Shown piece after piece: positions 9,527 through 33,169 of a DNA stretch of 36,743 nucleotides. This stretch comes from a virus (Duplodnaviria > Caudoviricetes): IMG/VR virus record IMGVR_UViG_3300032330_001542, positions 1 to 36,743 of that record. One strand, given 5' to 3'. The position numbers were made by a program, and so were the translations under genes. Position 1 is the first letter of the stretch; every line of letters starts with the position of its first letter. The notes under the pieces were generated by a model. That model did not search any database. It was not told where the DNA came from and saw nothing but the letters and a program-made list of their open reading frames with translations.

Positions 9527-9531
9527 CAGGC

Positions 9532-10545
9532 ATGAAAACATTGGTAATCATGCCCGGCGGATTTCACCCTTTTCACGCAGGGCACATGGCTCTTTATCGC
9601 AGCGCACTGGAAGCATTTCCTGGGGCAGATGTGTATGTGGCAGCTACCAATGACACCAGTGCTCGCCCATTTCCATTTGAAATCAAAGAAAAACTGGCTC
9701 GGTTAGCTGGCGTAGAGCCTGGACACTTTGTGCAGGTCAAATCACCGTTTCAGGCTCGAGAGATCACAGCCAACTATGATCCTGCGGATACCACACTGAT
9801 CTTTGTGCGCAGTACCAAGGATCAAAACAAGCCACCACAGCCAGGTGGTGTTAAAAAAGATGGCACAGCCAGTTACTTACAACCCTTGGGCAATAAGACT
9901 GAGCCCATGAATCGACATGCCTACATGGCCTACTTGCCCACAGTGGAGTTTGCTGATGGCATGACTTCGGCCACAGAAATCCGTGAGCGTTGGCCCGAGA
10001 TGACCCCAGAGGACAAGGCCAACATTGTGCATGAAATGTATCCGCGCACTCAAAGCAATGTGAAACTCACTGATACAGTGGTCAAAATGTTAGATGCTGC
10101 TATTCAACCCGGTGGTGTCACAGAAGCTACCTTGGTCAATGATCCCGAGCGTGGCGTGGAAATTCGTCCCGACGGCGGTTTGGGCAGTTATACCCCAGAC
10201 ACCTTGAAGAAAACTGTGGAACAACACATCATTCGTGCTCTTGAGCACTTGAAAAATGGTGACTTTGACAAAGTGGATTACATGTTGTATCAGTGGGGCG
10301 TGTTACAGAGCAAGGTGGATGCACTACGAAAGTATGCAGACTTCATGCAGCAGCAGGGTCGTAGGCCCATAGCTCGTGGCCGTGAGATCGATATTGGTGA
10401 AGACTATGTGGAAGAAACTTGGTCAAACAAGTACAAAAAGAGTATCAACTGCAGCAACCCCCGAGGATTCAGCCAAAAAGCGCACTGTGCTGCTCGTCGC
10501 AAAAGAGCCGCAGGTGGCCGGACAAAAAGTAAGCCGGTGCGTTAA
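9532..10545 (+). CDS. HIGH-type nucleotidyltransferase with appended C-terminal modules
   Basis: MKTLVIMPGGFHPFHAGH and SATEIR; then a GVTE junction, a helical module, a YVEE junction and a basic Cys peptide (WSNKYKKSINCSNPRGFSQKAHC). Confidence 0.8.
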   Translation: MKTLVIMPGGFHPFHAGHMALYRSALEAFPGADVYVAATNDTSARPFPFEIKEKLARLAGVEPGHFVQVKSPFQAREITANYDPADTTLIFVRSTKDQNKPPQPGGVKKDGTASYLQPLGNKTEPMNRHAYMAYLPTVEFADGMTSATEIRERWPEMTPEDKANIVHEMYPRTQSNVKLTDTVVKMLDAAIQPGGVTEATLVNDPERGVEIRPDGGLGSYTPDTLKKTVEQHIIRALEHLKNGDFDKVDYMLYQWGVLQSKVDALRKYADFMQQQGRRPIARGREIDIGEDYVEETWSNKYKKSINCSNPRGFSQKAHCAARRKRAAGGRTKSKPVR

Positions 10546-10552
10546 ACACAGT

Positions 10553-10582
10553 TAAATATCTTGGTACATTTTACCAAGAGGA
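10553..10582 (+). promoter_or_regulatory. TAAATA motif plus hairpin overlapping the RBS
   Basis: TAAATA 10553-10558; stem TCTTGGTA(10559-10566)/TACCAAGA(10572-10579); SD GAGGA 10578-10582. Confidence 0.55.
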
Positions 10583-10586
10583 TTTC

Positions 10587-11510: not shown

Positions 11511-11523
11511 ACTGTTGTACCCA

Positions 11524-11529
11524 TAAATA
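11524..11529 (+). promoter_or_regulatory. TAAATA late-type promoter motif
   Basis: TAAATA-N7-ATG(11537), no SD. Confidence 0.6.
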
Positions 11530-11536
11530 CAGTTCT

Positions 11537-14500
11537 ATGAACCTCGAAGAACTGAGAAGTTACAATCTAGCCGACGCAGTGAAGTTTAACAGCCGTTTGA
11601 ACCCCCGTTTGTGGGGTTCAGACGAGCATTTGCGCCCAGAAGTGCGCGAAGCCCTGTTAAAGATTGCGGATGATTTCCGCGAATTTCTCGGCGTTGACAA
11701 CATTGATCTTGAAGATATTACTGTATCCGGATCCAATGCTGCATATACCTATACCCCACATTCCGACATTGATCTACACCTTGTGGTACGCCCACCTGCT
11801 GCCGCAGATGATGTGTATCGTGAACTGTTCAATGCCAAGAAATATCAATACAATGACCAGCATGACATCAAGATCGGCGGCTATGATGTAGAACTGTATG
11901 TGCAGGATGCTGACCAACCACATGTGAGCCAAGGCATCTACAGTGTAAAGAACAATGACTGGATTCAGGTTCCGCGTCGTCGCAGAGCCCAAGTGGATGA
12001 CATCAGCACTCGCAGCAAGTATGAAGATGTGGCCACCAGAATCGAGCAGGCCATTGCTTCGGGCAGTGAAGAACAGATGGCTGTGCTGTGGAACAAGATC
12101 AAAGCCATGCGCCAAACTGGCCTGGCCGAACACGGCGAATTTGGGCCAGAGAACTTAGCATTCAAAATGCTGCGCACTCAAGGTGCCATAGAACGCCTCA
12201 ATGCTGCTAGAAATCAAGCACATGATCAGAGACTGAGCTTGAAAGAAAAACAACCCAGCGCACCACGAGTTTATGGATTCAAGACTCCGGTCACAGAAGT
12301 AGGTCTCACACCCGATGGCGTCAGCCCCGACACCAAGATGTTTCTCAGTGAAGAACCACCACCCGACAATGATACCATAATCTCCCAATTTACAGACTAT
12401 GCCTGTGAGGCCTTGGGATTAGAACACTGCCCACGCATAAGAATCAAACGCGATCCAGCTTGGAGCGAGCGTAACCGTAGTTTTGGTCGCTATGACCCTG
12501 GCACAGATCAACTGTTTATCAGCACGGCCAATCGTCACATCATTGATGTGCTGCGTACCTTGGCACATGAACTGGTACATGCACGACAGGCCGAGCATGA
12601 GACTTTGCCCGATGATGCAGGTGAAACTGGCAGTAGCTATGAGAACGAAGCCAATGCCGTGGCCGGACAGCTCATGCGTGAGTTTGGTCGCGCACATCCT
12701 GAATACTTCAAAGAAGCCCCTATAGAAGAACAAAGTGCTGCTGGCATATTGCAAGGCATACAGGCCTTGGGTGGACTGCGCCGTATCACTCGTGCTGGTG
12801 TCAGCGATGAAGCCAGTCAAGAACTGCGCAACTATATTCGTGCACAAGGTGGAGATGCTGGATCACAGAATCAAAGTGTGATATACCAACAACAGCGTCA
12901 GCAACCGTCAGACACAGCCCCGGGTGTTACACCAGAACCAGATGCCAACCCTGCCACAAGATACATTCAGCGTGATCCACAACAACAAAACGAAGGTGCG
13001 TCAGGCTATATTCCTACAAAAAAGCAAGCCCGGGATCCTCGCTTCAGCATGGCACTTACCCAGGACATTCGCCCTGGACAGGTGGGCAAGGAAGCCAACA
13101 AGTTAGGACTGCAAACTGACAGCCAAGGTCATCCTGCATTGTTGATCAAGAACCTGAAAAATCAACTGCGTGAGTACATGGAAACTGGCCGACTGGATGA
13201 AAAGTATCACGCACCCATCAGTCAGGTGCCAGGCGAGGTAGAAGATGACCTGGGCAATCAAGAACCACCCGGACCAGAGTTTCCACCACAGTGGCCCGAA
13301 GGTACCACAAAGATTGATGTCAGCGACCTAACTGACTGGTACAGATTGGGCATGGATATTTCGGACATGGATGATGCTCGTCCTGAAGATTACAATCAAG
13401 GTCCACCACAGACAGTGATTGTGTTTCCCAGCGATGAAATGGAACAGCCTTATTTGAAGCAGTTCAAACGCTTGGGCCTAAAAACACATGACATGGATGC
13501 CGGCGGCGAACACATGCACGAATCCGTGCTGTCGGAAGAGATCTTGGATGAAATCTCACAAACACCCGGGGCCATACAAGACTGGGCTAAAGATTCGGCC
13601 ACCTGGAATATAAAAGCCGGCTTTGAAGCCGAACTGATATTTCCCTCGGTGGGGGGCAGTTCGGAGGACGAGGAGTGGGAGCCCGACTATGACATGGACG
13701 AGCGTGCCTACAGCATAGACGACATTGTGCAGTTCTACACCAGCGGCGATGCGGGTATGAGTCAGGCCGCCGGGCGAAGATTACGCGATAGAATGTTTGA
13801 GGACTGGATTGTATTCACCGACGAACAATTGGCAGAAAACTGGAATCGGGATCAATTTGCAGCAGTGATGGACTATGTAAAACAAAATGAAATGCCCAAA
13901 TTTGAAACCTGGCTCACAGAGTGGTGCGAACAGAATGGTCATGATTTTGCTGCCATCAAGGCCAGTGCCCGAGAACAAAACAAGCAAGATCCCAACTACC
14001 AACTGTATGTCACTGCCAGCGAAATGTACACTAATGAATTAGAACGCATTGTTGATGAAGCCATAGACGAAGAAAACAACATCTATGACGATGCTCGTGA
14101 CCAGTACTTTGATGAAGAACGCGAAAATGTAGCCGACGAAGAGGCCTGGTTGAGATCTCAAGGCATTAGAATGATGAGTGATGTAGGCAACGAGTATGAT
14201 GCGGAATGGCCCTACTATCGCCCCATGGGTGGTGAAGGCGATGTAGATGCCAATGAGCTGGGTGAAAGTCTTAGCTCGGCCACAGGCAAACCAGTCACTG
14301 TGAGCCAGAGCTATCACAGTGCCACTCGCAGAGCCAACACCTATATCATTGAGCCTGACTCAAGCCTGGAACCAGATGACGGCGATGGCACAGGTCTCGA
14401 AGTTGTGAGTCCGCCCATGCCCTTGCCTGAAACCTTGGCTCAGCTCAAGTTGGTGATCAACTGGGCCCGCAAGGTGGGTGCCTACACCAACTCCAGCACC

Positions 14501-16402
14501 GGCCTGCACATGAACATCAGTGTGCCCAATCAAGCCAACATAGACTATGTGAAAACTGTGTTGTTCATGGGCGATAGATATATCTTAGAAAAGTTTGGCC
14601 GCGAGAGCAATACCTACACACGCAGTGCCATGGAAAAACTGCAGGCCAAACACCAGGGTAAAGACTACACACCCCAACAGTTGGCCACAGTGTTTCAGAC
14701 CCTGCGCAGTGAAGACCAACGCGCTGCGTTTGAAGCCATACAGGCCGGCATTGGTCGTGACAAATACACTTCGGCACATCAAAAGTCCGGCTACATTGAA
14801 TTCCGCTCACCGGGTGGCAACTACTTGGGCAATGATGCCGAAGAAGTTGGCAGTTTGGAAAACACCATGCTGCGTTTTGCTCGAGCCATGAGCATAGGTG
14901 CAGATCCCACTGCCTACCAACGAGAATACAGCACCAAACTCTACAAACTGCTCACAGCGGGTGAAACTCCTCGAGGCCTGGATGTAACCATGAAACTGTT
15001 TGCCGACTACAATGCTGGCACAGTGACTCCAGAAGCCTTGAAACGAATCTGGGCTCAACAGGTGATCAAGTCGCAGGAAAAGCCCAGTGATCGACCCACA
15101 TCCAAGGCCCGGGCAGCCAAGGCCGCGGCCATCATGGACAAGCCAGTGACATCAGGAGTGCGTGCCGATCAGGTGCGCTCGGACAATGGAGTTCCCTTGT
15201 GGAACATCCTGGAACCCGGTGGTGGCGTATTGGCCACCATAGCAGATCACAATGTTGCTGCGGCCAGACAACAGGCCAACACTTGGTTGAGAAGCGTGGG
15301 CAAAACAGACCCCACAGCCTATGCAGTGGTACCACGCCTTGACCCCAACAAAGCAGCCACAGCCAATCGACTGTGGCAAATTGTGGATCACGCAGGTAAT
15401 GTGGTCAGCACATTCCTAAACAGAAATGACTTGGCCAGTGCCGAACAGTATGCAAGAACCTACATAGCCAGCTTGGACAATCAAGATGAAAGTTATTCTG
15501 TACGACCAGCTGATCAACCCCTTGTGGGCGCTGCTCGGCGAGCCGCACAGGCCGCTGCACCTGCAGGTGGTCAATTCACTGGCGAATGGCAAATAGTAAG
15601 TGCCTCAACTGGTGAAGAACTGCATAGATTTGGTGGCATAGGCAATGCTCAGGCCGATGCCAATCGTGTGGCTCAACGATGGGTGCGTAACACAGGTTTT
15701 GACGATGCCATTGAAGTAGTTCCAGTCATGGCCGAGAGTGGCCGTGTGAGTGTGATGAAGGCTTTGCTGGAAGTTGAGGATAGTTGGCAAGACTTATACA
15801 AGAAAAACATTGATGTTGTGGGCGCAGATCCCAATCTAATTAGACCTGGACAACAGTTACAGTTACCTGGCGGCGGCACTTACACTGTTAAACCTGGAGA
15901 TACCTTGAGTGGCATTGCTGCCGGACAAACACGCCCAATGCAACCCGCAGTACCTACGCCTGCAACTGCACCAGTGACCACATCTGCAACCGCTGTGCCT
16001 GCTGTCAAGCAAGATACACATGATGCAGTTTTCCAAAGCATGCTGGGTGCAGAAAGTGGCAACAGAGACACGGATCCACGCACTGGTCTGCCCATGACAT
16101 CCAGCAAAGGCGCCAAGTACGCAGCACAGGTTTTGCCCGCTGTGGCCAAAGATCCCGGCTATGGCGTAACACCTGCACAGGCCGACACTGCAGAAGAATA
16201 CAATCGTGTGGGCCGTGAATACTTTCAAGCCATGGTCAAAAAGTACGGCGGCGACACCAGCAAGGCCGTGGCAGCCTACAACATGGGTCCGGGTGCCTTG
16301 GACAAACTAATTGCCAAACACGGTGAAGATTATCAACAGCGCCTGCCAAAAGAAACACGCCACTATCTGGCCAAGGTGGCAGCAGGAACACCGACCACAT
16401 GA
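11537..16402 (+). CDS. 1621-aa polyvalent protein: pol-beta-type nucleotidyltransferase, zincin metallopeptidase, amidoligase (COOH-NH2 ligase), repeats, permuted LysM, lytic transglycosylase
   Basis: GSNA...SDIDLHL...DVELY; TLAHELVHARQ...ENEA; GFEAE...DSSL...LEVVSP...STGLHMN...IEFR; DPNLIRPGQQL plus YTVKPGDTLSGIA; AESG...SSKGA...AVAAYNMGPG...ETRHY. Confidence 0.8.
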   Translation: MNLEELRSYNLADAVKFNSRLNPRLWGSDEHLRPEVREALLKIADDFREFLGVDNIDLEDITVSGSNAAYTYTPHSDIDLHLVVRPPAAADDVYRELFNAKKYQYNDQHDIKIGGYDVELYVQDADQPHVSQGIYSVKNNDWIQVPRRRRAQVDDISTRSKYEDVATRIEQAIASGSEEQMAVLWNKIKAMRQTGLAEHGEFGPENLAFKMLRTQGAIERLNAARNQAHDQRLSLKEKQPSAPRVYGFKTPVTEVGLTPDGVSPDTKMFLSEEPPPDNDTIISQFTDYACEALGLEHCPRIRIKRDPAWSERNRSFGRYDPGTDQLFISTANRHIIDVLRTLAHELVHARQAEHETLPDDAGETGSSYENEANAVAGQLMREFGRAHPEYFKEAPIEEQSAAGILQGIQALGGLRRITRAGVSDEASQELRNYIRAQGGDAGSQNQSVIYQQQRQQPSDTAPGVTPEPDANPATRYIQRDPQQQNEGASGYIPTKKQARDPRFSMALTQDIRPGQVGKEANKLGLQTDSQGHPALLIKNLKNQLREYMETGRLDEKYHAPISQVPGEVEDDLGNQEPPGPEFPPQWPEGTTKIDVSDLTDWYRLGMDISDMDDARPEDYNQGPPQTVIVFPSDEMEQPYLKQFKRLGLKTHDMDAGGEHMHESVLSEEILDEISQTPGAIQDWAKDSATWNIKAGFEAELIFPSVGGSSEDEEWEPDYDMDERAYSIDDIVQFYTSGDAGMSQAAGRRLRDRMFEDWIVFTDEQLAENWNRDQFAAVMDYVKQNEMPKFETWLTEWCEQNGHDFAAIKASAREQNKQDPNYQLYVTASEMYTNELERIVDEAIDEENNIYDDARDQYFDEERENVADEEAWLRSQGIRMMSDVGNEYDAEWPYYRPMGGEGDVDANELGESLSSATGKPVTVSQSYHSATRRANTYIIEPDSSLEPDDGDGTGLEVVSPPMPLPETLAQLKLVINWARKVGAYTNSSTGLHMNISVPNQANIDYVKTVLFMGDRYILEKFGRESNTYTRSAMEKLQAKHQGKDYTPQQLATVFQTLRSEDQRAAFEAIQAGIGRDKYTSAHQKSGYIEFRSPGGNYLGNDAEEVGSLENTMLRFARAMSIGADPTAYQREYSTKLYKLLTAGETPRGLDVTMKLFADYNAGTVTPEALKRIWAQQVIKSQEKPSDRPTSKARAAKAAAIMDKPVTSGVRADQVRSDNGVPLWNILEPGGGVLATIADHNVAAARQQANTWLRSVGKTDPTAYAVVPRLDPNKAATANRLWQIVDHAGNVVSTFLNRNDLASAEQYARTYIASLDNQDESYSVRPADQPLVGAARRAAQAAAPAGGQFTGEWQIVSASTGEELHRFGGIGNAQADANRVAQRWVRNTGFDDAIEVVPVMAESGRVSVMKALLEVEDSWQDLYKKNIDVVGADPNLIRPGQQLQLPGGGTYTVKPGDTLSGIAAGQTRPMQPAVPTPATAPVTTSATAVPAVKQDTHDAVFQSMLGAESGNRDTDPRTGLPMTSSKGAKYAAQVLPAVAKDPGYGVTPAQADTAEEYNRVGREYFQAMVKKYGGDTSKAVAAYNMGPGALDKLIAKHGEDYQQRLPKETRHYLAKVAAGTPTT

Positions 16403-17058
16403 GGATAGCAGAAATTAAGCGCATACCACAACACCATTATGCCGGTGGCAAGGCCTGGTTGTTAGACGAGCTGACCGCTGCCGAGCGCCGTCACAGTCAA
16501 GAGCTGCCTGGTGGCCTGGGTCTGCGCTGGACCAATCTCCAACGAGACTATGAGGGTGTGGCCATATTCAATCAAGACGGTGTGATAGGCGAATTAGAAT
16601 TGATTCCTGCCGCAGATTTCCCCATGAAGGCTGTGCAGGTTTACGCTATCACTGTGGATGAAGAATGGCAAGGTCAGGGCATAGCTCGGGCATTGTACGG
16701 CATTGTGTTGTCTCTACAGAAAAAAATCTTGGTAGCAGGAGCGGAACAAACTCCGGGCGGTCGTCGTAACTGGGTGAGCTTGGCTCATGTTCCAGGCGTA
16801 GAAGTCAAGGGATATGTCAAACTCACAGACCAATGGTTTGACAGCCGAGGTGCTCGTGCAGCAAAACTGGACCAATTGTTAAAAAATATCATGGCCCTGG
16901 GTGCCGAACACATTGGTACCATGCAAGGCCAACACTTTTTTAGTTTTCCTGTGGTGCCTGGTCGCACCGAACTGCAAGCACCCGTGGTCAATGCCATACG
17001 AACCTATGGTGCCAGCGATTTGGAAACTGGATTGTATGCTAGGTGGGTAGGATCATGA
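16399..17058 (+). CDS. GNAT-family acetyltransferase
   Basis: ITVDEEWQGQGIARALY (acetyl-CoA-binding motif A); ATGA overlap with the upstream gene. Confidence 0.75.
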   Translation: MRIAEIKRIPQHHYAGGKAWLLDELTAAERRHSQELPGGLGLRWTNLQRDYEGVAIFNQDGVIGELELIPAADFPMKAVQVYAITVDEEWQGQGIARALYGIVLSLQKKILVAGAEQTPGGRRNWVSLAHVPGVEVKGYVKLTDQWFDSRGARAAKLDQLLKNIMALGAEHIGTMQGQHFFSFPVVPGRTELQAPVVNAIRTYGASDLETGLYARWVGS

Positions 17059-19955
17059 AAGTAGGCGAATTACATTGGCCTCGTGGGATGACTGTGTATG
17101 TGGACATGGACGGTGTGCTGGCCGACTTTGAAGCCGGCTATCATAGACTGTTTGGTCGCCGGCCCGGTTCCGAGTCTCGAGACGATCCCAATATCGCAAA
17201 ATTAGTTGGCACTGACTTCTTTGGTACCTTGCCCAAGTATGACTCAGCTGACGCGCTGATACAGTTGGTACTGGACCATGCCGGCCGTTACAGCATTTGT
17301 ACCGCACCCCTGCGCAACGATCACAAAAACAGCGGCCACTGGAAGCGTGAGTGGTTGGCACAACACATCTCTCCTGCACCCCGACAGATCAAGGTCAATG
17401 GTCAAAAAGAAGTGTATGCAGTGGGTGCAGATGGTGTGCCCAATGTACTAATTGACGACAAACCCAAGAATATACAACGCTGGCGTGCTGCAGGTGGCAT
17501 TGCCGTAGAATACTATGCACCAAGAGATGGCCTGGATGTGGTGGCTCAAGGTCTAAGACAATCCGCACAGTGGCGGCCTGATGCCGTTAAAGAATCGGCC
17601 ACTGGCGATTTGGAAAAAGACTTGAAGGATCCCCTGGGTTATGATGCCATAGATCACATGATGCAGACCATAAGCCGGCGCCACGGTATCACGGCAAACC
17701 GGTTACATGACTTGTTTGTTGCCAAGCATGGTTGCACACCCGATCACTGGATCAAGCAAGGTGTGACAGAAGGCCGCAGTAGCGGCTACAAAGAAATAGA
17801 GTTTATCTGTGCTAATCCTAAATTCCCTAATGCCACTGATCCCAAACTTCAAAAACAAATGTATGCAGGTTTGAAGCAAATTCCGGGAGTGATACCACTA
17901 TTTCAAGATCAAAGTGATTACAGCGAAGGTCAGTATAGTTTAACCGCGATATATAAAGACCGTGATGTGCGTGGACAAATATTAAAACTTGCAAAGCAAT
18001 TGGGTGTAAAAGTAGACTTAGAGCAACCAGTGACTGATGACTATGTTGATCGTGCCATCCGTGGTGAACACGAAGGGCAGCAAGGCATGGCGGAAGGCTT
18101 AGAAGAAGCAGTAGGTGGCAACTATCTATATCATGCCACAATGCCCGCGGGTATAATGCGTATATTGCGAGATGGATTGATCAAAGCATCATGGAGGCCA
18201 CAAGAAGCCACTAAGGCTAAAACAAAATATCCCACCGTCAGTACAACTAGATCAAAGCAATACGCAGAATCAGACAACTTTGTAAATTTCTTAAATTTAA
18301 CCAAAGATGGCAATGCGGCCATAATGGTGTTTGATCGTAATGCAGTGGCCAATCACTACAAGATGTTTAGTACCAGTCAAGGAACACAAAATGTTGGAGA
18401 CGAGTACGAAGAAGTCATAGTGGTGCCCAAAGGAGCAATGCCAATCAGAGGAACATTGAAAGGATTCTATTTCAATCCCAAACGAGCAGCAGAAATAGAA
18501 GAATATAAAGATTTTCCTTGGTTCAAAGAATTATTAAAGAGCCCTTATTACCTGGGCCCCCGGCAAGGTGTGGCGGAAGGCGGTGCCGAAACAAGTTGGT
18601 CCAATGACACCGATACAATTACACTACAGGATATTTTAGAATTAACCAAACATATTAAACAAATAAATTTACCAATTAACGATAATCTAAAGAGTAAACT
18701 ACTTCATTGGGAAGGTAACCCAGAAGAAATAGAAAGAGTTAATCAAGTAACGGTGTCTAACCAATTTCCTATTTTAATTATGGTAGATGAGCAAGGTCAA
18801 ATAGCCTGGATACTCGATGGCAACCATAGACTACACAAGGCAATACAATCACAAGCAAAAACAATACCTGCTAAACTTATTAGACCCAGCAACCTTGATG
18901 ATAAAGCAAAGAAAATATTTAATATAAAAGAGCAAGGTGTGGCGGAAGGCAAAAGCAATGATACTGCTATAAGTTTATCTCGTTTGGGTAAATTTCATCC
19001 CGGCGCAGATACACTGGCAGAGTTCGTTCCAGAAAGAGCCACTGCACAATATGCCTTGCACCCAGACAAGTGGGAATCAACCTTTTACAGTTTGACCAAC
19101 AAAGATTCTGACAAATTAAAATACTACGGTCCAAAAAAGATTTCGATTCCTCCAGGAACCTTGGTGGGAGACATGGCCATTGCTAACAAGTTCTATAGAG
19201 CAAAGACCCCCGAAGAAAAACAACAGTATGCCGAGGCATACAAAGCATCATTACAGCCATATCCGGTTGATGTCAGTGAATATCGCATGCCTGAATTGTT
19301 GATTCCCCGGCAAGGTGTAGCGGAAGGCCTTGAAGTAGATGTACCCAACGAACGCTGGTTGCAGAAAAAGATCGATTACGCTAAAAGGAAAGGTCGCACT
19401 AGCTATGGTGTGCCTTACATGGGCACAACCACAGCCTATACCTCACAGAATACACGAGTTCCTGTGGACATACTGCGACAACTGCTTGGCATGCGCCGTG
19501 AACAACAGAATGTTCGTCAAGACAACCTCAAAGCCCTTGTCAAGATCATGAAAGACACTGGTCGATTGCCCATGCATCAAGGTCAATACCCACCATCTAT
19601 TAATGTGGCCTGGAATGGTGAAGCCTGGGTAAATGACGGTAATCATAGAATCATGGCAGCGGCCGCACTGGGCTGGAAAGATCTCCCTGTACAGATACGC
19701 TACTTTGATGGTGGTGAAAGAGTCAAGTCTGGTGTGATGTATCCTGGTCGGATTGGTCTGGGTGACATCAAGGAAAACTTTGCTGATGGCCGAGGACCTG
19801 GTCGCCCTGGAGATAGCCGGCGTCACGGCATAAAGAAAGGCGTCACACTGGCACAACTGGATCGAATTGTGCATAGTAAAACTGCCAGCCCAAGAAAGAA
19901 ACAATTGGCACACTGGGCCGCAAACATGCGTAGAGGCAAAGCAAAGAAAAAATGA
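17055..19955 (+). CDS. Cassette polyprotein 1: HAD 5'(3')-nucleotidase-like domain, ART-like module, two ParB/Srx-like modules and unknown modules joined by QGVAEG linkers
   Basis: ATG 17055 (ATGA overlap); YVDMDGVLADF...LIDD; YLYHAT..STT..EYEE; DGNHR twice; five linker repeats; basic C-terminal peptide. Confidence 0.8.
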   Translation: MKVGELHWPRGMTVYVDMDGVLADFEAGYHRLFGRRPGSESRDDPNIAKLVGTDFFGTLPKYDSADALIQLVLDHAGRYSICTAPLRNDHKNSGHWKREWLAQHISPAPRQIKVNGQKEVYAVGADGVPNVLIDDKPKNIQRWRAAGGIAVEYYAPRDGLDVVAQGLRQSAQWRPDAVKESATGDLEKDLKDPLGYDAIDHMMQTISRRHGITANRLHDLFVAKHGCTPDHWIKQGVTEGRSSGYKEIEFICANPKFPNATDPKLQKQMYAGLKQIPGVIPLFQDQSDYSEGQYSLTAIYKDRDVRGQILKLAKQLGVKVDLEQPVTDDYVDRAIRGEHEGQQGMAEGLEEAVGGNYLYHATMPAGIMRILRDGLIKASWRPQEATKAKTKYPTVSTTRSKQYAESDNFVNFLNLTKDGNAAIMVFDRNAVANHYKMFSTSQGTQNVGDEYEEVIVVPKGAMPIRGTLKGFYFNPKRAAEIEEYKDFPWFKELLKSPYYLGPRQGVAEGGAETSWSNDTDTITLQDILELTKHIKQINLPINDNLKSKLLHWEGNPEEIERVNQVTVSNQFPILIMVDEQGQIAWILDGNHRLHKAIQSQAKTIPAKLIRPSNLDDKAKKIFNIKEQGVAEGKSNDTAISLSRLGKFHPGADTLAEFVPERATAQYALHPDKWESTFYSLTNKDSDKLKYYGPKKISIPPGTLVGDMAIANKFYRAKTPEEKQQYAEAYKASLQPYPVDVSEYRMPELLIPRQGVAEGLEVDVPNERWLQKKIDYAKRKGRTSYGVPYMGTTTAYTSQNTRVPVDILRQLLGMRREQQNVRQDNLKALVKIMKDTGRLPMHQGQYPPSINVAWNGEAWVNDGNHRIMAAAALGWKDLPVQIRYFDGGERVKSGVMYPGRIGLGDIKENFADGRGPGRPGDSRRHGIKKGVTLAQLDRIVHSKTASPRKKQLAHWAANMRRGKAKKK
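17756..19327 (+). repeat. Array 1 of the 18-bp direct repeat GCAAGGTGTGGCGGAAGG (5 copies)
   Basis: Copies start at 17756 (2 mismatches), 18080 (2), 18563 (0), 18932 (0) and 19310 (1); periods 324, 483, 369 and 378 bp, all multiples of 3. Confidence 0.95.
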
Positions 19956-20518
19956 AACGACTACTACTTACACTATTATTGATCATGGCAGGCACTGTGC
20001 AGGCTGCAGACTTGGCTGTGTGCAAAGGTCCATTTGCACTGTGTGCAGCATCCACTTGCAAGCCCACTGGCAAAACCATAACTGGCAATAACGGCATACC
20101 TTATCCCGAAGTTGAATGTCGTTGCCCCATACTCAATGGCCATAGCATTGCTGACACATCAGCGGGCAACATGCAAGGTTCCTGCACACCCACTGACAGC
20201 AATCATGTGTGGAGCTTGTTTGCACCAAGACTGCACTATCCACAAGAAGCCAGTAACTTCAGCAAGAATCCCAAAGACACCAAGGCCGTGGTACAAAAAT
20301 GTGATGCCAGTTTGAATCTCGGCAACAAAGCCAGCAATTGCTTTAGTTGGAACTGTGTAAAAGGTGCGGATGGCATAGCAGTTTGCTCGTGCCCCACAGG
20401 ACAAGTGGCTGCTGCCACTACATTTCTTACCGAGGCTGGTCAAGGCAATCCTGCAGCCTGCTCACAGTATCCAGTGAGTCTGCCTATTCAAGCACAGGAT
20501 TCCCCTAAGAAAAAATGA
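19952..20518 (+). CDS. Secreted/periplasmic Cys-rich protein
   Basis: Signal peptide MKRLLLTLLLIMAGTVQA; 12 Cys in the mature part. Confidence 0.75.
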   Translation: MKRLLLTLLLIMAGTVQAADLAVCKGPFALCAASTCKPTGKTITGNNGIPYPEVECRCPILNGHSIADTSAGNMQGSCTPTDSNHVWSLFAPRLHYPQEASNFSKNPKDTKAVVQKCDASLNLGNKASNCFSWNCVKGADGIAVCSCPTGQVAAATTFLTEAGQGNPAACSQYPVSLPIQAQDSPKKK

Positions 20519-20697
20519 AAACACAAGACATACTGGCCGGCTTTCGGGTATATGTGGCTCGAGTGCGTGTGAAGAATCCTGCCTACACCACCACTGTGGA
20601 AGTGGCCATCAACGCTAAGAATCCGCAGCAGGCGCGACTGTTGCTGCAGGCACAGTATGGTCGTGACAGCATAGTCAGTGGCGTCACCGAGGCCTAA
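20515..20697 (+). CDS. Small hypothetical protein
   Basis: 60 aa, ATGA overlap, MKTQDIL leader. Confidence 0.65.
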   Translation: MKTQDILAGFRVYVARVRVKNPAYTTTVEVAINAKNPQQARLLLQAQYGRDSIVSGVTEA

Positions 20698-20699
20698 CC

Positions 20700-21281
20700 G
20701 TGAAGTCGCGCGAGATCATCCCCGAAGCCAGCCCACTTACACTGGCGGGCAGTTTCACTCGCGACCTTGTTGTCAGCAAGTTATGGCTGTTGGACACAGT
20801 ACAAGCACTGGATGCTCCTAGATTTAACACTGCCTATATCTTGGGCAGTTGGTATGGCAATCTCAGTTTGTTTATGATAGCACGCCGTATGCCAGTGGAT
20901 CACATTGTGAATGTGGATCGTGGGCGTTGGCTTGGCGCCAGTGAAACACTAGCACAGCGCCTGGGCATGGCAGATGATATAGAATACATGCGGGCCGATG
21001 CCAATGACTTGGACTATAGACAGGCCACGCCTCCCAGCATTGTGATCAACACCAGTGTGAATGACATGCCCAATACAGGCTGGTTTGACAGTATTCCCGA
21101 CGGGACTTGGGTAGCAGTGCAAGGGCGCAATCATGTCAGCTCGGGTGCAGCCAACGATTATGCTAGTTTAGCGGCGTTTGATCAGGCCTATCCCTTGGGC
21201 CAAACCCTGACATTGGACAGTATTGAACTAGAGGATCCTGAGGTTAAATACAGTCGTTGGATGAAAATAGGAATAAAATGA
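20700..21281 (+). CDS. Class I SAM-dependent methyltransferase-like protein
   Basis: YILGSWYG (motif I-like), VNVD, DANDL, VINTS; GTG start, leader MKSREIIPE. Confidence 0.55.
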   Translation: MKSREIIPEASPLTLAGSFTRDLVVSKLWLLDTVQALDAPRFNTAYILGSWYGNLSLFMIARRMPVDHIVNVDRGRWLGASETLAQRLGMADDIEYMRADANDLDYRQATPPSIVINTSVNDMPNTGWFDSIPDGTWVAVQGRNHVSSGAANDYASLAAFDQAYPLGQTLTLDSIELEDPEVKYSRWMKIGIK

Positions 21282-22828
21282 AAGCCAGGGAAATAAACGA
21301 AGCCTGTTGGACCGGATATCGTCAGCAGGGCACAAAACGCAAGGGCGATAGAATGGTGCCCAACTGTGTGCCTGTGGCTGAACAGCGTAGAGATCCCACA
21401 GATCTATTTCGTCCCTCAGACGAAGAACTAGACCGGCTTCAGCATCAGTTCATACCCACATGGAGCATGTTGGACCATGATTTATTAAAAACCTCCTATG
21501 ATTTCCAGGACAATGACACAGCATTAGAATTTGTCAATGCACTGGCTGCCATGAGCGAGGCCATGGACCATAATGCAGTGATTGGTTTGGATCATGCCAG
21601 AGTCACTGTTGAAATACGCACCGGGGATGTTGATGGCCTTACACGCTTGGACTTTGAGTTTGCACTGAAATGTCAAACCTTGGCCGATGTCATGCATGCC
21701 AAGCAAGCACCACACACCACCAATGCTGTGATGGAAAATCTTCGTGACTGGTTTGGCAAAGGCAAACAGGGTGGTGCTGGAGGTGGTGGTTGGGACCGCT
21801 ACAATACCAAGGGCGAGCGTATTGGCAAGTGTGGAGACGGTAAGCCCGGTGAAGGCAAGCCCAAGTGTTTGAGCAAAAGCAAGGCAGCCAGTTTGCGCGC
21901 CTCAGGTGGCAAGGCGGCCATTGCTGCTGCTGTGCGTAGAAAGCGTGCCAATGATCCCAATCCCGAACGCCGTGGCGCAGCCAAAATGGTCCCAAATCGT
22001 GCCAAGTTAAACGAGTTTGATCGTGGTGAAGGCGGCTTTGGTCCTTTCAAGGTCTATGATACAGATTATCTCATAGGCTCGTTTGAAACATTTGATGATG
22101 CTCGAGCAGAAGTAGAAGATATAAGAGACGCAGATCCAAGAACAGCCAATACTCTGTGGCGCATTGTGGATGGCACAGGCGAAACTGTGTGGGAACACGA
22201 TCCAGGTGCGGCATGGGATGCTTGGCGCAGCAGTCAGAAAATACGTTTCTTGCCCAGGGACAAGCCAGGAGTCACCGAAGACCAAGACCGGGGTGATATA
22301 CCCGCAGCAGTGACCAAGTTTTATCAGGATGAAGTAGGCAACTTCTCTACCAAGCCTGTGGGCAACTATGCGGAAGTGGCTCGTGCTCTGGTACAAAAAG
22401 CACCCACACCCAGCATTCGTAAAAAAGTGATCGACGCCTTGGTCACTGCCAAAGACAATCCTTACATTCAAGGTGGTGTCATAACCACCATTGGTGCTGC
22501 ACTAGCCGGCGGCGTGCTGACCACAGCACAGCAAATGGGGCTAAACCCCGGTCAAACCAATATCATGTTGCAGGCCGTGCTTAACACAGTGATACCCACC
22601 ATGGTGTCAGTGGTCAATGGCAAGAGTCTTGAGGACACCATCAAGTATGTGCTGACCAGTGCTGCTATGGGCACAGGGTATGCTGCGGTAACAGAAGCTG
22701 GCAAAGACGCCTGCTATCGCAAAGTCAAAAGCAGATACAAGGTATGGCCCAGTGCCTATGCATCTGGTGCACTGGTTCGCTGCCGCAAAGTGGGTGCAGC
22801 CAACTGGGGCAACAAATCAAAAAAATAG
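21278..22828 (+). CDS. Modular polyprotein with a pterin-4a-carbinolamine dehydratase-like domain and Cys/basic micro-modules
   Basis: ATG 21278 (MKAREINE); CWTGY..VPNCVP; LKTSYDFQD..ALEFVN..MDHNA..TGDVDGLTRLDFEFA; junctions VAE, VME, LNE, VTE, VTE. Confidence 0.75.
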   Translation: MKAREINEACWTGYRQQGTKRKGDRMVPNCVPVAEQRRDPTDLFRPSDEELDRLQHQFIPTWSMLDHDLLKTSYDFQDNDTALEFVNALAAMSEAMDHNAVIGLDHARVTVEIRTGDVDGLTRLDFEFALKCQTLADVMHAKQAPHTTNAVMENLRDWFGKGKQGGAGGGGWDRYNTKGERIGKCGDGKPGEGKPKCLSKSKAASLRASGGKAAIAAAVRRKRANDPNPERRGAAKMVPNRAKLNEFDRGEGGFGPFKVYDTDYLIGSFETFDDARAEVEDIRDADPRTANTLWRIVDGTGETVWEHDPGAAWDAWRSSQKIRFLPRDKPGVTEDQDRGDIPAAVTKFYQDEVGNFSTKPVGNYAEVARALVQKAPTPSIRKKVIDALVTAKDNPYIQGGVITTIGAALAGGVLTTAQQMGLNPGQTNIMLQAVLNTVIPTMVSVVNGKSLEDTIKYVLTSAAMGTGYAAVTEAGKDACYRKVKSRYKVWPSAYASGALVRCRKVGAANWGNKSKK

Positions 22829-22837
22829 GAGCGTGAC

Positions 22838-23023
22838 ATGGCAAAAGTAAAAAAATCTGGCCCCCGGGGCATACAGCGTGAAAGACACTGGGATGGCAAG
22901 GTAGTAAGTCCAGTGCTGTGGAATGGTCGTGACAGCAAGTACATGGCAGCAGAAGTTAATGGGCAGTTGGTGTTACGGCAGGATGGAAGTCCCATGCCCT
23001 ATCGCAGTTGCCCACAGGTATAA
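22838..23023 (+). CDS. Small basic hypothetical protein
   Basis: 61 aa with an AGGAG RBS. Confidence 0.65.
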   Translation: MAKVKKSGPRGIQRERHWDGKVVSPVLWNGRDSKYMAAEVNGQLVLRQDGSPMPYRSCPQV

Positions 23024-23024
23024 C

Positions 23025-23315
23025 ATGGCATTTTTGCGTGTGATCACCGACATACATCTTGAGTGGACTGGTGATGCTCCATGCTATCGTACCTGGGTCA
23101 ACGACGAACTGTTTGTAGAACGCACTTGGTATTGGCCAGATGAATATGCTGAAGAATTGTTTCAAATTGAAGCACCCCCTGGACAGTATCAAATCAGAGT
23201 GGAAAACCTAGATCCAGACCGTGCTCAAATGAAGAACTGTAATTTACGAGTAGATTTTGGACCTGGGCGTATTTTGAACAACGATATTTTAGAGGTGTAT
23301 GATGAGAGCCAGTGA
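23025..23315 (+). CDS. Hypothetical protein
   Basis: ATG 23025 lies just after the previous stop, in frame with track ORF 22923..23315. Confidence 0.65.
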   Translation: MAFLRVITDIHLEWTGDAPCYRTWVNDELFVERTWYWPDEYAEELFQIEAPPGQYQIRVENLDPDRAQMKNCNLRVDFGPGRILNNDILEVYDESQ

Positions 23316-23499
23316 GTTTATCGCAGAAAATGCGTCTGCAGGCGCCACTAGCAGTGGCAGCGTAGCCGTGGTGGCCATGCCCATGGGCATACAAAGACGA
23401 AGTGGAGATAGTTTACTGGGTGGTAAATACACTACGGACCCGACACCAAACACACCGAAAGAATACAAGAGACTAAAAAATGCTAACAGACGATCTTAA
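23302..23499 (+). CDS. Small protein with a capsid-targeting-like leader (MRASEFIAE)
   Basis: GAGGTG RBS; leader resembles the T4 internal-protein leader MKTYQEFIAE. Confidence 0.65.
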   Translation: MRASEFIAENASAGATSSGSVAVVAMPMGIQRRSGDSLLGGKYTTDPTPNTPKEYKRLKNANRRS

Positions 23500-23920
23500 A
23501 ACATTATTGGCAACAACCTATTCATACGCAATTAAAACACAATATTTTCATTGGAATGTGGAGGGTCCGGATTTTGGCCAATTGCACGAATTCTTTCAAA
23601 CTCTGTACGAAGATGCCAATTCAGCCATTGACCCCATAGCTGAATACATCCGCGCACTGGGCGAATATGCTCCTGGCAGCTTTGAGCGTTTTGCACAACT
23701 CACACAAATCCAGGGCCAGACCAAAGTTCCGCGTGCCAGACTCATGCTGGAAGAACTGCTGGTGGACAGTGACACAATTATTGCGCTATTGAACCAGTGC
23801 TTTGCCGCTGCAGAACAAGAAAACGCACAGGATGTGGCCAACTTCATTGCCGAACGACTCAGCCAACACAACAAATATCGCTGGCAGTTACGCAGCTATC
23901 TCAAGGATGCTAGAGCGTGA
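23480..23920 (+). CDS. dps: Dps family ferritin-like DNA-protection protein
   Basis: HWNVEGPDFGQLHEFFQTLYE...DPIAEYIRALG and KYRWQLRS signatures. Confidence 0.92.
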   Translation: MLTDDLKTLLATTYSYAIKTQYFHWNVEGPDFGQLHEFFQTLYEDANSAIDPIAEYIRALGEYAPGSFERFAQLTQIQGQTKVPRARLMLEELLVDSDTIIALLNQCFAAAEQENAQDVANFIAERLSQHNKYRWQLRSYLKDARA

Positions 23921-24537
23921 GCGATGACATCCGTGTGATCTTGGAGCGCATGGCAGCTCTAGAAGCTGATCTTACTCCTGTTGGCGTCAAACATGGACTG
24001 AACAAGCAACAGCGCGGCGTGCCTCAACTGCCTGCACTGTTCAAACCCAAGCACATTACAGTGCTTACAAACAAAACAGATCCTCAACACCCAATGAAGA
24101 ATTACTTTGTGGGTGACAGTGAGGAGAATCTCAAGCAGCCAGTGGAAGAAGGTGCTGTAGAAGAAGATGTACTCAGCAAGGTCAAAAAAGGCCTCACTGA
24201 CTATTTGAAAAGCATCGAAGATGAAATCCGCGGCGACAGTGACTTGAAAGATCGTAAGCCTGACACACGCGAACTACGCGGCAAAGATGATAAAGTCAAA
24301 GATCATGAACTGATGGTGGCTGTAAGCCATCCTGTGAAAACACACACCATGGAAGATGGATCAAGTTGTGAAATACATGGTGATGAAAAGAATGGATTCA
24401 TTATTCGCCGTGGAGATCGCGAGCTGCCCACACGCTTTGAGAGCCTGGAAGAAGCCAACATGGCCTTGGAAATGTTTTTGGCACGCCGACCACGCCAGGT
24501 GGCAGATGTGGTTGCTGACTATGTGGATGAAGCATAA
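23917..24537 (+). CDS. Hypothetical modular protein
   Basis: GTGA overlap with dps; ALE and VEE junction-like sites. Confidence 0.7.
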   Translation: MSDDIRVILERMAALEADLTPVGVKHGLNKQQRGVPQLPALFKPKHITVLTNKTDPQHPMKNYFVGDSEENLKQPVEEGAVEEDVLSKVKKGLTDYLKSIEDEIRGDSDLKDRKPDTRELRGKDDKVKDHELMVAVSHPVKTHTMEDGSSCEIHGDEKNGFIIRRGDRELPTRFESLEEANMALEMFLARRPRQVADVVADYVDEA

Positions 24538-25889
24538 TGAGACTACAGGACCTATTTGAAACTCGCAAAGCGGTGGCGGAGGCCACTGGAGACAAACCAT
24601 TTGATAATATGATGAAAGGTATTGTCAAGGGAACTAAGAAGCAAGCAGCCGCAGATCGCCGAGAACAGAAAAAACAAGATCAAGAAAGAGCACGAGCCGC
24701 ATTTGGGCCTAATCCTGCTGATAAACTCAGTATTAGAAAGCCAGGTGTGGCGGAAGGTGTAATGAGCGAGATTGATTTGGAGTTGCGTGAAATTGTTGCT
24801 AATCAAGATTTTGATGCTCTGTACAATTTGTTTTCAGCTAATACTCCAGCCGGTCGCTATGTACAAAATATCTACAATGATGTTGCTATCGATCACAGAC
24901 TACATCCAGATGATGATTTTGAACGCATTGAAAAATTGGTATTTGATCGTTTGGAAGATCAATTCGGCGAGCAAGGTGTGGCGGAAGGCTCAGTCGAAGA
25001 AGGTGTCATTGACAAAGTCCGTGCTATGAACTATGATCGTTTGGCAAAGAGGTCTGACAAAAAAGTGCAAACAGCATTTGATAAAATGCAGGATTTTGAC
25101 TTCGCTGATCCGGAAAGATTCCCGCATGAAAAGGAATTTTCTGATCAAATGGACAAGATGGGACAAAGAACCAAAAAAGCAAATCAGTTGCGTACAGAGC
25201 AAGGTGTGGCGGAAGGTGAGGGTTCAAAATCTAGCCCTTACGAGCAAGGTGGTACTGATGCTTGGTATCATCGTGGATTTGATCCAAAGGCACATGGATA
25301 TAAACCCGGCACCGAAGAATACCGTGAGTACAAACGAGGCTTTGACCAAAACGACTTCGGCCCAGAAGGCGGCAAGCAATATGTTGAAGAACTCACTGTG
25401 CCTGCTGCTGTCAAAGGTGCTGGCAAGGTCATAGGCAAGAAACTGCCTCTTGTGGCCGTACCTTTGGGTGCCTATGATGCCTATGAGAGAGCCAAAGCAG
25501 GAGATATAGCCGGTGCAGGTTTGGCAGCAGGTTCTATGATAGGTGGTATTCCACATCCATTAACAATTGGTGCAAGTCTTGGATTAGATGCCATACAGGC
25601 CTTGCGCGACAAAGCACGCACAGGTGAATATTTGCCCGACTATGAAAAAATCGCAGCAGCAGTGGCCAAAGACCAGGCCAAACAAACTGCCATGCCAGCA
25701 GACAAATGGTCCGATGTGCCCACTGACAAGTGGCAGGCCAAAGACGACAAATCGGATATCATTGTTCACAGTCCCATAAAGATTGGCACTGATGATGAAG
25801 ATGACGAAGATGAAGCTCTCATTGACAAAAACCTCAAAGAAAATTCCGAACTAGACCGTATTCGGTACTACGTCAAATACACAGGCTAA
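24537..25889 (+). CDS. Cassette polyprotein 2: short unrelated modules joined by [QP]GVAEG linkers
   Basis: Leader MRLQDLFE; KAVAEA, PGVAEG, QGVAEG twice; Gly/Ala-rich hydrophobic module; LKE-NSELDRIR end. Confidence 0.8.
   Translation: MRLQDLFETRKAVAEATGDKPFDNMMKGIVKGTKKQAAADRREQKKQDQERARAAFGPNPADKLSIRKPGVAEGVMSEIDLELREIVANQDFDALYNLFSANTPAGRYVQNIYNDVAIDHRLHPDDDFERIEKLVFDRLEDQFGEQGVAEGSVEEGVIDKVRAMNYDRLAKRSDKKVQTAFDKMQDFDFADPERFPHEKEFSDQMDKMGQRTKKANQLRTEQGVAEGEGSKSSPYEQGGTDAWYHRGFDPKAHGYKPGTEEYREYKRGFDQNDFGPEGGKQYVEELTVPAAVKGAGKVIGKKLPLVAVPLGAYDAYERAKAGDIAGAGLAAGSMIGGIPHPLTIGASLGLDAIQALRDKARTGEYLPDYEKIAAAVAKDQAKQTAMPADKWSDVPTDKWQAKDDKSDIIVHSPIKIGTDDEDDEDEALIDKNLKENSELDRIRYYVKYTG
24566..25216 (+). 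repeat. Array 2 of the 18-bp repeat (3 copies plus 1 degenerate)
   Basis: Degenerate copy 24566-24583 (core GTGGCGGA kept); copies at 24740 (1 mismatch), 24971 (0) and 25199 (0); periods 174, 231 and 228 bp. Confidence 0.92.
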
Positions 25890-25904
25890 ATGGTTACATA
25901 GGTC

Positions 25905-25933
25905 TTGTTTTTCTCAAAGTAATGCTGTATAAT
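25905..25933 (+). promoter_or_regulatory. sigma70-like promoter for the replication operon
   Basis: TTGTTT-N17-TATAAT, followed by an AGGAG RBS and ATG 25961. Confidence 0.7.
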
Positions 25934-25960
25934 ACACAGATTACTTTTTAGGAGACAGCT

Positions 25961-29908: not shown

Positions 29909-30634
29909 ATGAAAGATTATTTGTCGGATTTAGTATCACACACTCACGACCTAGGCTGTATTGACCTAGTTAAAATCACAGGCACTGACAAAGAAACTGC
30001 TATCTCAGGCATTGCTGAAGATCGCTCAGTGGTGGTAGATGGTCACTTTGCCAATCCTGTGCCAGAATTCATTGGTACCTTTGGTATGCCTAACTTGGGC
30101 AAACTCAAGATCCTGTTGAACTTGCAGGAATATCGTGAAAATGCCAAGTTATCAATCAAGGCTCGCGGCGACAACAGCGGTCCAGAAAGCATCAACTTTG
30201 AAAACGCCACAGGCGACTTCCGAAACAACTATCGTTTTATGGCACCAGAAATTGTGAATGAGAAATTGAAAACTGTGAAATTCAAGGGTGCCAAGTGGAA
30301 TGTGGAATTCCAACCCACTGTGGCTGCTATTCAGCGACTGAAGATGCAGGCCAGTGCCAATGCTGAAGAACCCAACTTTCAGGCCAAGACCGAAAACGGC
30401 GACTTGAAGTTTTTCTTTGGTGACCATAGCACACACGCTGGTAACTTTGTGTTTCATCCTGCGGTAGGTGGCGAACTCAAGCGTCAGTGGTCTTGGCCTG
30501 TGAAGACTTTCATCAGTATTATGGACTTGGTAGGTGACAAGACTGTGCGAATCAGTGATGAAGGTGCAGCTCAGATCACAGTGGATTCAGGCATTGCTGT
30601 TTACAACTATATCTTGCCAGCACAGACCAAGTGA
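29909..30634 (+). CDS. Probable DNA polymerase sliding clamp (gp45/PCNA-like)
   Basis: 241 aa, alternating beta/alpha two-domain pattern, C-terminal YNYILPA strand like other clamps, near polB; inference only. Confidence 0.5.
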   Translation: MKDYLSDLVSHTHDLGCIDLVKITGTDKETAISGIAEDRSVVVDGHFANPVPEFIGTFGMPNLGKLKILLNLQEYRENAKLSIKARGDNSGPESINFENATGDFRNNYRFMAPEIVNEKLKTVKFKGAKWNVEFQPTVAAIQRLKMQASANAEEPNFQAKTENGDLKFFFGDHSTHAGNFVFHPAVGGELKRQWSWPVKTFISIMDLVGDKTVRISDEGAAQITVDSGIAVYNYILPAQTK

Positions 30635-32199: not shown

Positions 32200-32201
32200 T
32201 T

Positions 32202-32720
32202 ATGAATCGCCAAGGACATGAAGAAGTGGATTTCTTTGTTGGTACAGAAGTTGAACAGTCACCTGCATATGGATTGACCACACTGTTTGTGGTAGGTATT
32301 CAAGACACAGATGACATCAACTACTTCGCTGAATTACATGGCTGCGAGCATATCTATTTTGGTGCCAACCACAGCTTTCAAATTGCTGAAGCAGCAGATT
32401 GGAAGTCTTGGTACATGATGATTACTGATCTTTTAGAGCGTGGTTGGTTATGCACCTTGGATTTGGATGTAAGTGAAGTAGAAAGTTTGCTGGGCAGTGG
32501 CCTGTGCGAACATCACAAATTTATTCCCATGATCAGTGTGAAATTGCCCTATGCCAATCAACTCAACTACAATGCCACACTCAAAATTGACGACAAAGAT
32601 TTCAACTTAACCAACCCCGGCGTATGGTGTCACAGCCTACATGAACTCACACGCCGTGACACATTCACTGACTGGTCAAAATATTCCAAAGATCAATGTA
32701 TAAACAAGGAACAACGATGA
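32202..32720 (+). CDS. Hypothetical protein in the deazaguanine cluster
   Basis: ORF 32196..32720, ATG 32202 after AAGGA; motif HIYFGANHSF; function unknown. Confidence 0.75.
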   Translation: MNRQGHEEVDFFVGTEVEQSPAYGLTTLFVVGIQDTDDINYFAELHGCEHIYFGANHSFQIAEAADWKSWYMMITDLLERGWLCTLDLDVSEVESLLGSGLCEHHKFIPMISVKLPYANQLNYNATLKIDDKDFNLTNPGVWCHSLHELTRRDTFTDWSKYSKDQCINKEQR

Positions 32721-33160: not shown

Positions 33161-33169
33161 GGATTTATC

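Follow-up and report, generated by a model that had tools for sequence, protein, structure and literature searches.

We analyzed a 36,743-nucleotide stretch of DNA (hereafter the window), IMG/VR record IMGVR_UViG_3300032330_001542, which is a 36.7-kb fragment of a phage genome (Duplodnaviria; Caudoviricetes). Two of its genes, A and B, encode chains of small protein modules (cassettes) separated by an 18-base in-frame repeat whose commonest product is the peptide QGVAEG (the linker). Near-identical strains differ in the cassettes they carry, with gains, losses and replacements falling exactly at copies of this repeat, and the linker spelling is constrained as DNA, beyond codon bias. The repeat is a frequent joint, one among several, and modules also swap at junctions that lack it. 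We consider it probable that the linker is a swap joint used in short-homology recombination by general phage machinery, and that its peptide lets a prohead protease release the modules.

Scanning the window for the 18-mer identified eight copies with 0–2 mismatches, all on the + strand (Table 1), compared with a mean of 0.05 matches and a maximum of 1 in 100 shuffles. This confirmed the copies reported by the first-pass annotation, which a model had made from the sequence, and all eight lie in one frame within genes A and B. Copy-to-copy spacings are 108, 161, 123, 126, 77 and 76 codons, with a further 58 codons from the worn copy at 24566. The annotation had every copy encoding x-Q-G-V-A-E-G, which holds exactly for five of the eight; the other three encode QGVTEG, QGMAEG and PGVAEG. 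Within the window the linker is spelled GGT for Gly in 7/8 copies, GTG for Val in 6/7, GCG for Ala in 7/7 and GAA for Glu in 8/8; GCG makes up 8% of the Ala codons of the window. The annotation had accepted 24566 as a degenerate copy and set aside the junction at 22267–22278 as unrelated, a distinction that could not be kept, as both have 6 mismatches of 18. The six cassettes lying between copies have a GC content of 0.33–0.43, compared with a median of 0.487 for the other window genes, and 0 to 5 of 86 background tiles (300 bases, from the other window genes) were as low in GC as the cassettes; this base composition suggests a foreign origin.

Comparison with strains that are overall 91–99% identical to the window revealed cassette gain, loss and replacement exactly at the repeat, as the first-pass annotation had proposed. 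In L125 (96–99% identical), B1 (231 nt) is gone and one hybrid copy remains, combining the left flank of copy 6 with the right flank of copy 7; beyond copy 8 this strain carries modules different from those of the window. A2 and A3 (852 nt) are missing together from a contig of sequencing run X5 and from L399 and L400, possibly a single population. In run X8, 331 other letters stand where the window has A3 and A4, from copy 3 to copy 5. A contig of run X4 skips B2 (228 nt), and A5 is absent from a contig of that run (joint 19328→19773). Runs X1–X4 come from one study, X1 being possibly the source of the window, and X5, X7, X8 and X9 come from four other studies. Joints of the 'go back' type that mark circles were not listed in the eight runs, for which contigs were searched; all 20 runs listed for the region are stored as contigs, and contigs drop rare forms. 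Of the 28 strain joints listed, 16 were dropped because one side was shorter than 30 letters, these being likely to derive from other repeat-sharing phages. The 12 well-anchored joints listed (at least 30 letters) included four with a copy at both ends (in one case the worn copy at 24566), two with copy 5 at a single end, and two with the worn junction 22264 at a single end. Strain-level swaps were also observed in other phages: in L086/L098, L204/L206 and L105/L725, the same upstream flank is followed by a different downstream module.

The cassettes also travel between proteins. Copies of A1 (87% identical), A3 (98%) and A4 (95%) were found beside other neighbors, and A2 was present in about 20 further proteins, differing in size and position, as well as standing alone. 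The expectation that one cassette would appear in different host genes was thus borne out. One of the proteins with A2, P0068, is an orthologue of the cytidylyltransferase-like gene of the window (70% over 192 residues), and the similarity stops just before QGVAEG and A2, at the place of the worn junction 10110. Linker instances were collected by overlapping scans, and the figures on instances and flanking modules given here and below are among the matches listed. Upstream flanks of the 494 instances fell into 415 types and downstream flanks into 435. Of the 59 upstream flanks that recurred, 54 had more than one downstream partner, and of the 45 recurring downstream flanks, 39 had more than one upstream partner. 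Of 53 homologues of A4, 27 are 120–136 aa long, and 25 of these 27 end within 3 residues of the start of the window linker. Elsewhere the modules exist as whole genes of their own, whose stop codon falls at the position taken here by the linker.

The exact 18-mer was present in an estimated 810 or so IMG/VR stretches (stretches, not genomes) and in 61 places in 596 billion bases of prokaryote genomes. In all 148 matches examined, no open frame was longer than that of QGVAEG. With the wobble bases of Gly, Val and Ala left free, about 2300 stretches matched, compared with about 870 for a reordered control. The spelling GGT GTG GCG was used in 56 of 130 distinct contexts, and the commonest control spelling in 8 of 109. 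In the 99 contexts with open frames of at least 100 codons, GCG occurred 71 times, against 12.4 predicted by the codon use of those frames; the corresponding figures were 67 against 19.1 for GTG and 82 against 37.1 for GGT. Conservation beyond what the peptide needs, as claimed in the annotation, is therefore found in the wider family as well. The base before the linker, described there as an invariant G, is G in 8/8 window copies, but in the family it is G in 42 of 52 Lys, Glu and Gln codons (background 19–33%) and in only 43 of 68 overall; it is therefore favored, not invariant. Cassette content was not fixed, indel breakpoints fell at the repeat in several strains and codon choice exceeded bias, so that none of the three results named in the annotation as refuting its idea was obtained. 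A derivation of the linker from a mutated stop codon with a ribosome site was rejected, a stop before GGT being found in 0 of 301 contexts. The 61 prokaryote matches were scattered over unrelated taxa, a few of them on low-GC contigs resembling binned phage, and no host chromosomal target was found.

We next considered how the exchange could take place. Variant bases at linker positions 1 and 2 followed the upstream module, being shared by same-upstream pairs in 10/25 and 7/12 cases, compared with 3/21 and 0/15 for same-downstream pairs, and variants at position 18 followed the downstream module (5/8 vs 3/42). The crossover is bounded to base 6 or earlier in L399/window, to base 8 or later in L180/L061 and L713/L714, and to base 16 or later in L171/L714. 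The bounds of 28 near-identical pairs thus conflict with one position, and later point mutation can blur such bounds. They fit a crossover anywhere in the shared bases, as reported for the PeSL elements of T4-like phages (PMC2839356), and later mutation can mimic this pattern. Pairs involving the window itself hinted at a single crossover at bases 4–6, which the wider set did not bear out. Exchange would thus proceed by short-homology recombination, probably with an enzyme of the RecA/UvsX type. RecA/UvsX was found in 4 of 8 related records, downstream of the single-strand binding gene in the two loci read, and T4 UvsX can join ends at 3–4 nt of shared identity (PMC8262927). A network effect may then account for the uniform spelling: a module with the commonest spelling would have the largest number of sites to recombine into, the product always being in frame, so that one spelling could have spread through the clade as its standard with no dedicated recombinase involved.

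The annotation had instead likened the system to an in-frame integron. Its element of gain, loss and replacement at the repeat stands; its integron element is not supported. The 18-mer lacks dyad symmetry and forms no fold, no more than 2 bases in a row being self-complementary; the crossover bounds do not appear to meet at one position; and no site-specific recombinase was found in the eight relatives. Tyrosine recombinase PF00589 was found in 0/8 records (0/2 of those at least 90% complete; the control was found in 14/14), reverse transcriptase PF00078 and IS110 PF01548 gave no match, and serine recombinase PF00239 gave none over the cut-off and one match below it, in searches of these eight records that did not cover ERF, RecT, Rad52, Sak4 or Cas1. 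The annotation had suggested looking for a co-occurring recombinase or annealing protein, and RecA/UvsX is the type recovered. A dedicated site-specific enzyme of phage or host that recognizes the 18-mer, making the system a true in-frame integron analogue, would explain why the spelling is kept over some 810 stretches at local GC of 0.33–0.55, including the wobbles of varying codons, and why near-exact copies all lie on one strand within each relative. We regard it as unlikely in view of these negative searches, the lack of a palindrome or fold and of an apparent single crossover position, the scatter of the prokaryote matches, and the swapping that also occurs at worn copies and unrelated x-x-E junctions. 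Equally unlikely in our estimate is a standard connector common to a clade of giant freshwater phages, read both by a dedicated recombination factor and by a protease, through which any effector module plugs in frame into any cargo gene; if true, it would amount to a natural in-frame cassette library of hundreds of injected anti-defense modules. An improbable account holds that the linker is selected as a protease site only, its DNA being unselected and identical by descent through ordinary fusions and deletions. Many junctions do have other spellings and peptides, direct repeats of any kind give deletions, and each strain indel may be either a gain or a loss; however, the replacements in run X8 and L125 and the partner changes of 54/59 upstream flanks need exchange, not deletion alone, and silent sites stay constant between modules that are unrelated to one another and of unequal GC. 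Very improbable is the idea that the G-rich strand folds into a G-quadruplex of two tiers (four GG runs), stalling forks and creating a recombination hotspot: all four GG runs are kept in 302 of 489 instances, but the fourth is lost in 96, with a replacement GG nearby in 23 compared with 37 in a control interval, that is, without enrichment. Returning to short-homology exchange by general machinery, several observations weigh against it or narrow it. Neither end lay at a copy in 4 of the 12 well-anchored joints listed, and among close homologues of A2 the linker peptide was directly upstream in 6/20 and directly downstream in 8/21; the repeat is therefore one joint among several. Homology alone accounts for the match among copies, but less well for a spelling that holds in flanks below 38% GC (GCG in 102 of 107 linkers, a set enriched by the search patterns used), three near-identical pairs already differ at base 1, and RecA/UvsX was not found in 4 of the 8 related records, one of them 92% complete.

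The peptide is predicted, by analogy, to be cut by a prohead protease at V-A-E/G, freeing the modules. In T4, SPN3US and phiKZ, head proteases cleave on the C-terminal side of a Glu within a short motif (PMC5694885), and targeting propeptides of 10–19 residues are present on the internal proteins of T4 (PMC5694885, PMC9026906). A gp21-family protease (PF03420) scored over the cut-off, with E about 1e-23, in three of four related records, where its gene adjoins scaffold and gp23-type capsid genes, and none was found in the window. A targeting-like N-terminal motif, defined by our own pattern, was present in 22 of 27 stand-alone A4 homologues and, among the 38 window genes, in four that lie between 20700 and 24537, gene B being one of them. 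In 405 of 489 instances the linker Glu is followed by G or A. From the gp21-type protease of the relatives and these N-termini, we infer that the N-terminus would target the polyprotein to the prohead, that the protease would cut after the linker Glu, and that the pieces would be injected to act against host defenses or metabolism, one polyprotein delivering several small effectors. Points on the other side are that the N-terminus of gene A fails the targeting pattern, and that a stricter pattern fits only 30 of 139 linker-bearing frames (a set that includes chance matches). A second hydrophobic-x-E also follows within 7 residues of the linker in 70 of 435 modules, compared with 24 in a control interval, so the linker Glu may be redundant for cutting. 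This second x-x-E would suit polyproteins that stay uncut as multidomain 'polyvalent' proteins, the repeat being a DNA swap joint only and its peptide a neutral spacer; the virion RNA polymerase of N4 is a precedent for a packaged multidomain protein without processing (PMC5512222). We think this slightly less likely than a dedicated enzyme, because the frame and the Glu are preserved, non-repeat junctions likewise end in hydrophobic-x-E, and elsewhere each module occurs as a whole small protein.

Gene A, which starts with an NT5C-like nucleotidase domain (Pfam), holds at least two unrelated conflict domains: NT5C, two ParB-like modules, an ADP-ribosyltransferase fold and one weak such fold. 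A3 matched the ParB-like PHROG profiles phrog_17560 (E 2.7e-9) and phrog_723 (E 0.0055), and A5 matched phrog_1033 (E 1.1e-4). The AlphaFold model of A2 (pLDDT 87.7) is predicted to adopt an ADP-ribosyltransferase fold, with DarT as the best Foldseek match (E 7.9e-4, TM 0.51), followed by Tpt1; a shared fold alone shows no function, and a profile of A2 against the sequences of solved structures matched only Tpt1 (E 0.25–0.4). The A4 model (pLDDT 92.4) weakly resembles the same fold: the best VIA-align match had Z 5.3, rmsd 4.5 and 105 aligned residues, with DarT chains at ranks 2–4 and 6, while Foldseek gave none at E 0.001 and Atlas no usable match. The modules had been described as mutually unrelated, which stands except for the A3/A5 pair, both weakly ParB-like, and the A2/A4 pair. 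Pfam gave nothing useful on 12 modules, Pfam and PHROG profile searches returned no family for A1, B1 and B2, and family profile searches gave no match to a zincin-like (MPTase) peptidase in genes A or B. The modules at 17595–17756 (54 aa) and 19773–19952 (60 aa) occur in dozens of relatives, placed directly behind a targeting-like start or fused at varied x-x-E junctions.

Table 1. Linker copies, worn junctions, polyprotein genes and cassettes in the window
Feature	Position	Strand	Remark
Linker copy 1 (QGVTEG, 2 mismatches)	17756..17773	+	Run X7 contig has A1 with other DNA upstream of copy 1
Linker copy 2 (QGMAEG, 2 mismatches)	18080..18097	+	Left end of the 852-nt A2+A3 indel
Linker copy 3 (exact)	18563..18580	+	Left end of the A3+A4 replacement of run X8
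Linker copy 4 (exact)	18932..18949	+	Right end of the A2+A3 indel
Linker copy 5 (1 mismatch)	19310..19327	+	End of strain joints
Worn linker copy (KAVAEA, 6 mismatches of 18)	24566..24583	+	Joint 24572→25206 in run X4, intervening letters not known
Linker copy 6 (PGVAEG, 1 mismatch)	24740..24757	+	Left end of the 231-nt B1 indel
Linker copy 7 (exact)	24971..24988	+	From the 18-mer scan of the window
Linker copy 8 (exact)	25199..25216	+	L125 diverges to different modules directly after it
Worn junction (GGVTEA, 8 mismatches), cytidylyltransferase-like gene	10110..10127	+	Orthologue has QGVAEG and A2 here
Worn junction (PGVTED, 6 mismatches), gene 21257–22828	22264..22281	+	Right end of a strain-variable module; joints 22006→22270 and 22006→22277
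Polyprotein gene A, 970 aa, likely start 17055	17043..19955	+	NT5C nucleotidase-like domain, 54-aa module, A1–A5, basic C-terminal module
Polyprotein gene B, 450 aa	24537..25889	+	Targeting-like N-terminus, cassettes B0–B3
Cassette A1, 102 aa, GC 0.41	17774..18079	+	No family found; 87% identical copy with other neighbors in L454
Cassette A2, 155 aa, GC 0.41	18098..18562	+	Predicted ADP-ribosyltransferase fold, nearest DarT and Tpt1
Cassette A3, 117 aa, GC 0.33	18581..18931	+	ParB-like; 98% identical copy behind another module in L087
Cassette A4, 120 aa, GC 0.43	18950..19309	+	Weakly ADP-ribosyltransferase-fold-like; stand-alone gene in many phages
Cassette A5, 148 aa	19328..19772	+	ParB-like; right bound is a non-repeat x-x-E junction
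Cassette B1, 71 aa, GC 0.37	24758..24970	+	No family found; missing copy-to-copy in L125
Cassette B2, 70 aa, GC 0.40	24989..25198	+	No family found; skipped in a run X4 contig, joint 24968→25197

The window comes from a giant, uncultured phage of lake water, and its linker-bearing relatives are large. Eight related IMG/VR records span 214–332 kb (62–95% complete), and in seven of them the DNA polymerase is 72–84% identical to that of the window. Cultured matches to the polymerase are distant (42–50% to Phosso, Atu_ph07 and Rak2-like phages), and the capsid of the relative G003 shares 66% identity with that of PA5oct. The linker was not found in five cultured jumbo relatives (PA5oct, Vibrio 2.275.O, Phosso, Atu_ph07 and XaC1), each of which had at most one 2-mismatch match, as did the control. 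The labeled runs containing the region are freshwater, lake or aquatic metagenomes, and none of the listed runs holding it is RNA. Contigs in two Bacteroidetes bins (L790:1-1278 and L788) carry linker-joined low-GC modules; these are possibly mis-binned phage and provide a weak host lead.

The region 9451–25889 resembles a head-cargo cluster, in which several genes start M-[KR]-x-x-E-hydrophobic and modules end x-x-E. It includes gene 21257–22828, which encodes a pterin dehydratase domain along with modules also present in proteins of cyanophages, and a 1621-aa gene (11537–16402) with nucleotidyltransferase-like, amidoligase, LysM and lytic transglycosylase parts and an HExxH motif in its sequence. 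L401 departs from this gene at a V-M-A-E-S junction of other spelling, and from about 15740 onward its C-terminal LysM/transglycosylase part is unlike that of the window. The start (…ENASAG…) of a 65-aa gene (23302–23499) repeats sequence near the N-terminus of the G003 major capsid protein, a possible propeptide cut site. Positions 25382–25960, containing the C-terminal part of gene B (with a glycine-rich segment that matches tail-lysin PHROGs), are missing in runs X3, X5, X8 and X9, being replaced in X5, X8 and X9 by 90–93 other letters, with the joint off the repeat. DnaJ-like and ClpA/B-like genes, read from the sequence, and a Dps/ferritin-like gene (Pfam) lie at 4748–7864 and 23480–23920. 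Downstream of the DNA polymerase, 29909–35538 encodes a 522-aa protein without family and glycosyltransferase-like and epimerase-like proteins, labeled by reading the sequence; this block may be a DNA or surface modification pathway.

These results show at base resolution how the multidomain effectors of a phage acquire shifting architectures through a shared coding joint that keeps the frame, the modules likely being freed afterwards. Repeat-mediated shuffling and head-protease processing of injected cargo would be joined in one 18-base element. The linker also provides a search handle: the 435 downstream modules in the 494 instances are candidate injected anti-host or anti-defense proteins with defined ends, most of them without family. 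No description of the linker peptide, or of such polyproteins and cassettes by those words, was found in the literature searched, most subscription papers and supplements lying outside that search.

Several known systems share parts of this design. Integrons are arrays of unrelated low-GC cassettes with a repeated site between them and single-cassette gain and loss, and they rely on the IntI integrase, attC inverted repeats that fold as a hairpin, and a fixed crossover point. The linker system shares the low-GC unrelated cassettes, the repeated site and the single-cassette gain and loss, but no IntI-type integrase was found in the eight relatives, there are no attC-like inverted repeats, no fixed crossover point is apparent, and the cassettes are fused in frame without a start or stop of their own. 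PeSL cassettes occur in the T4-like phages RB49 and phi1, where strains lose a gene together with its element and a hybrid element is left; crossovers fall at varied positions, mini-circles were shown, and no dedicated recombinase is invoked in the parts of that paper covered (PMC2839356). The short repeats, the strain indel of module plus element with a hybrid left behind (L125), the apparently varied crossovers and an explanation that invokes no dedicated recombinase are alike in the linker system. PeSLs, however, are intergenic, with a promoter and a stem-loop terminator flanking whole genes, whereas the linker is 18 bases long, coding, in frame and without a stem-loop, and shuffles domains inside one gene. 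The T4 cargo proteins IPI–III and Alt (PMC9026906, PMC5694885) provide a parallel for the gp21-family protease and gp23-type capsid of the relatives, the stand-alone modules with targeting-like N-termini, the hydrophobic-x-Glu ending of the linker and, as in Alt, an ADP-ribosyltransferase fold among the cargo. In the parts of those papers covered, T4 cargo proteins come from separate genes and undergo end-trimming, whereas here unrelated modules are chained together by a linker that is internal and conserved as DNA. Polyvalent proteins, multidomain virion-associated conflict proteins of phages and conjugative elements, likewise combine ADP-ribosyltransferase, ParB-like and nucleotide-metabolism domains in varied arrangements, but their processing is ascribed to zincin-like peptidases; the parts of that paper covered mention no shared DNA joint, and 'linker' and 'shuffl' are absent from its main text (PMC5512222). 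By the features tested, the system is neither an integron nor a PeSL, and it works like intragenic PeSL shuffling combined with T4-type cargo processing.

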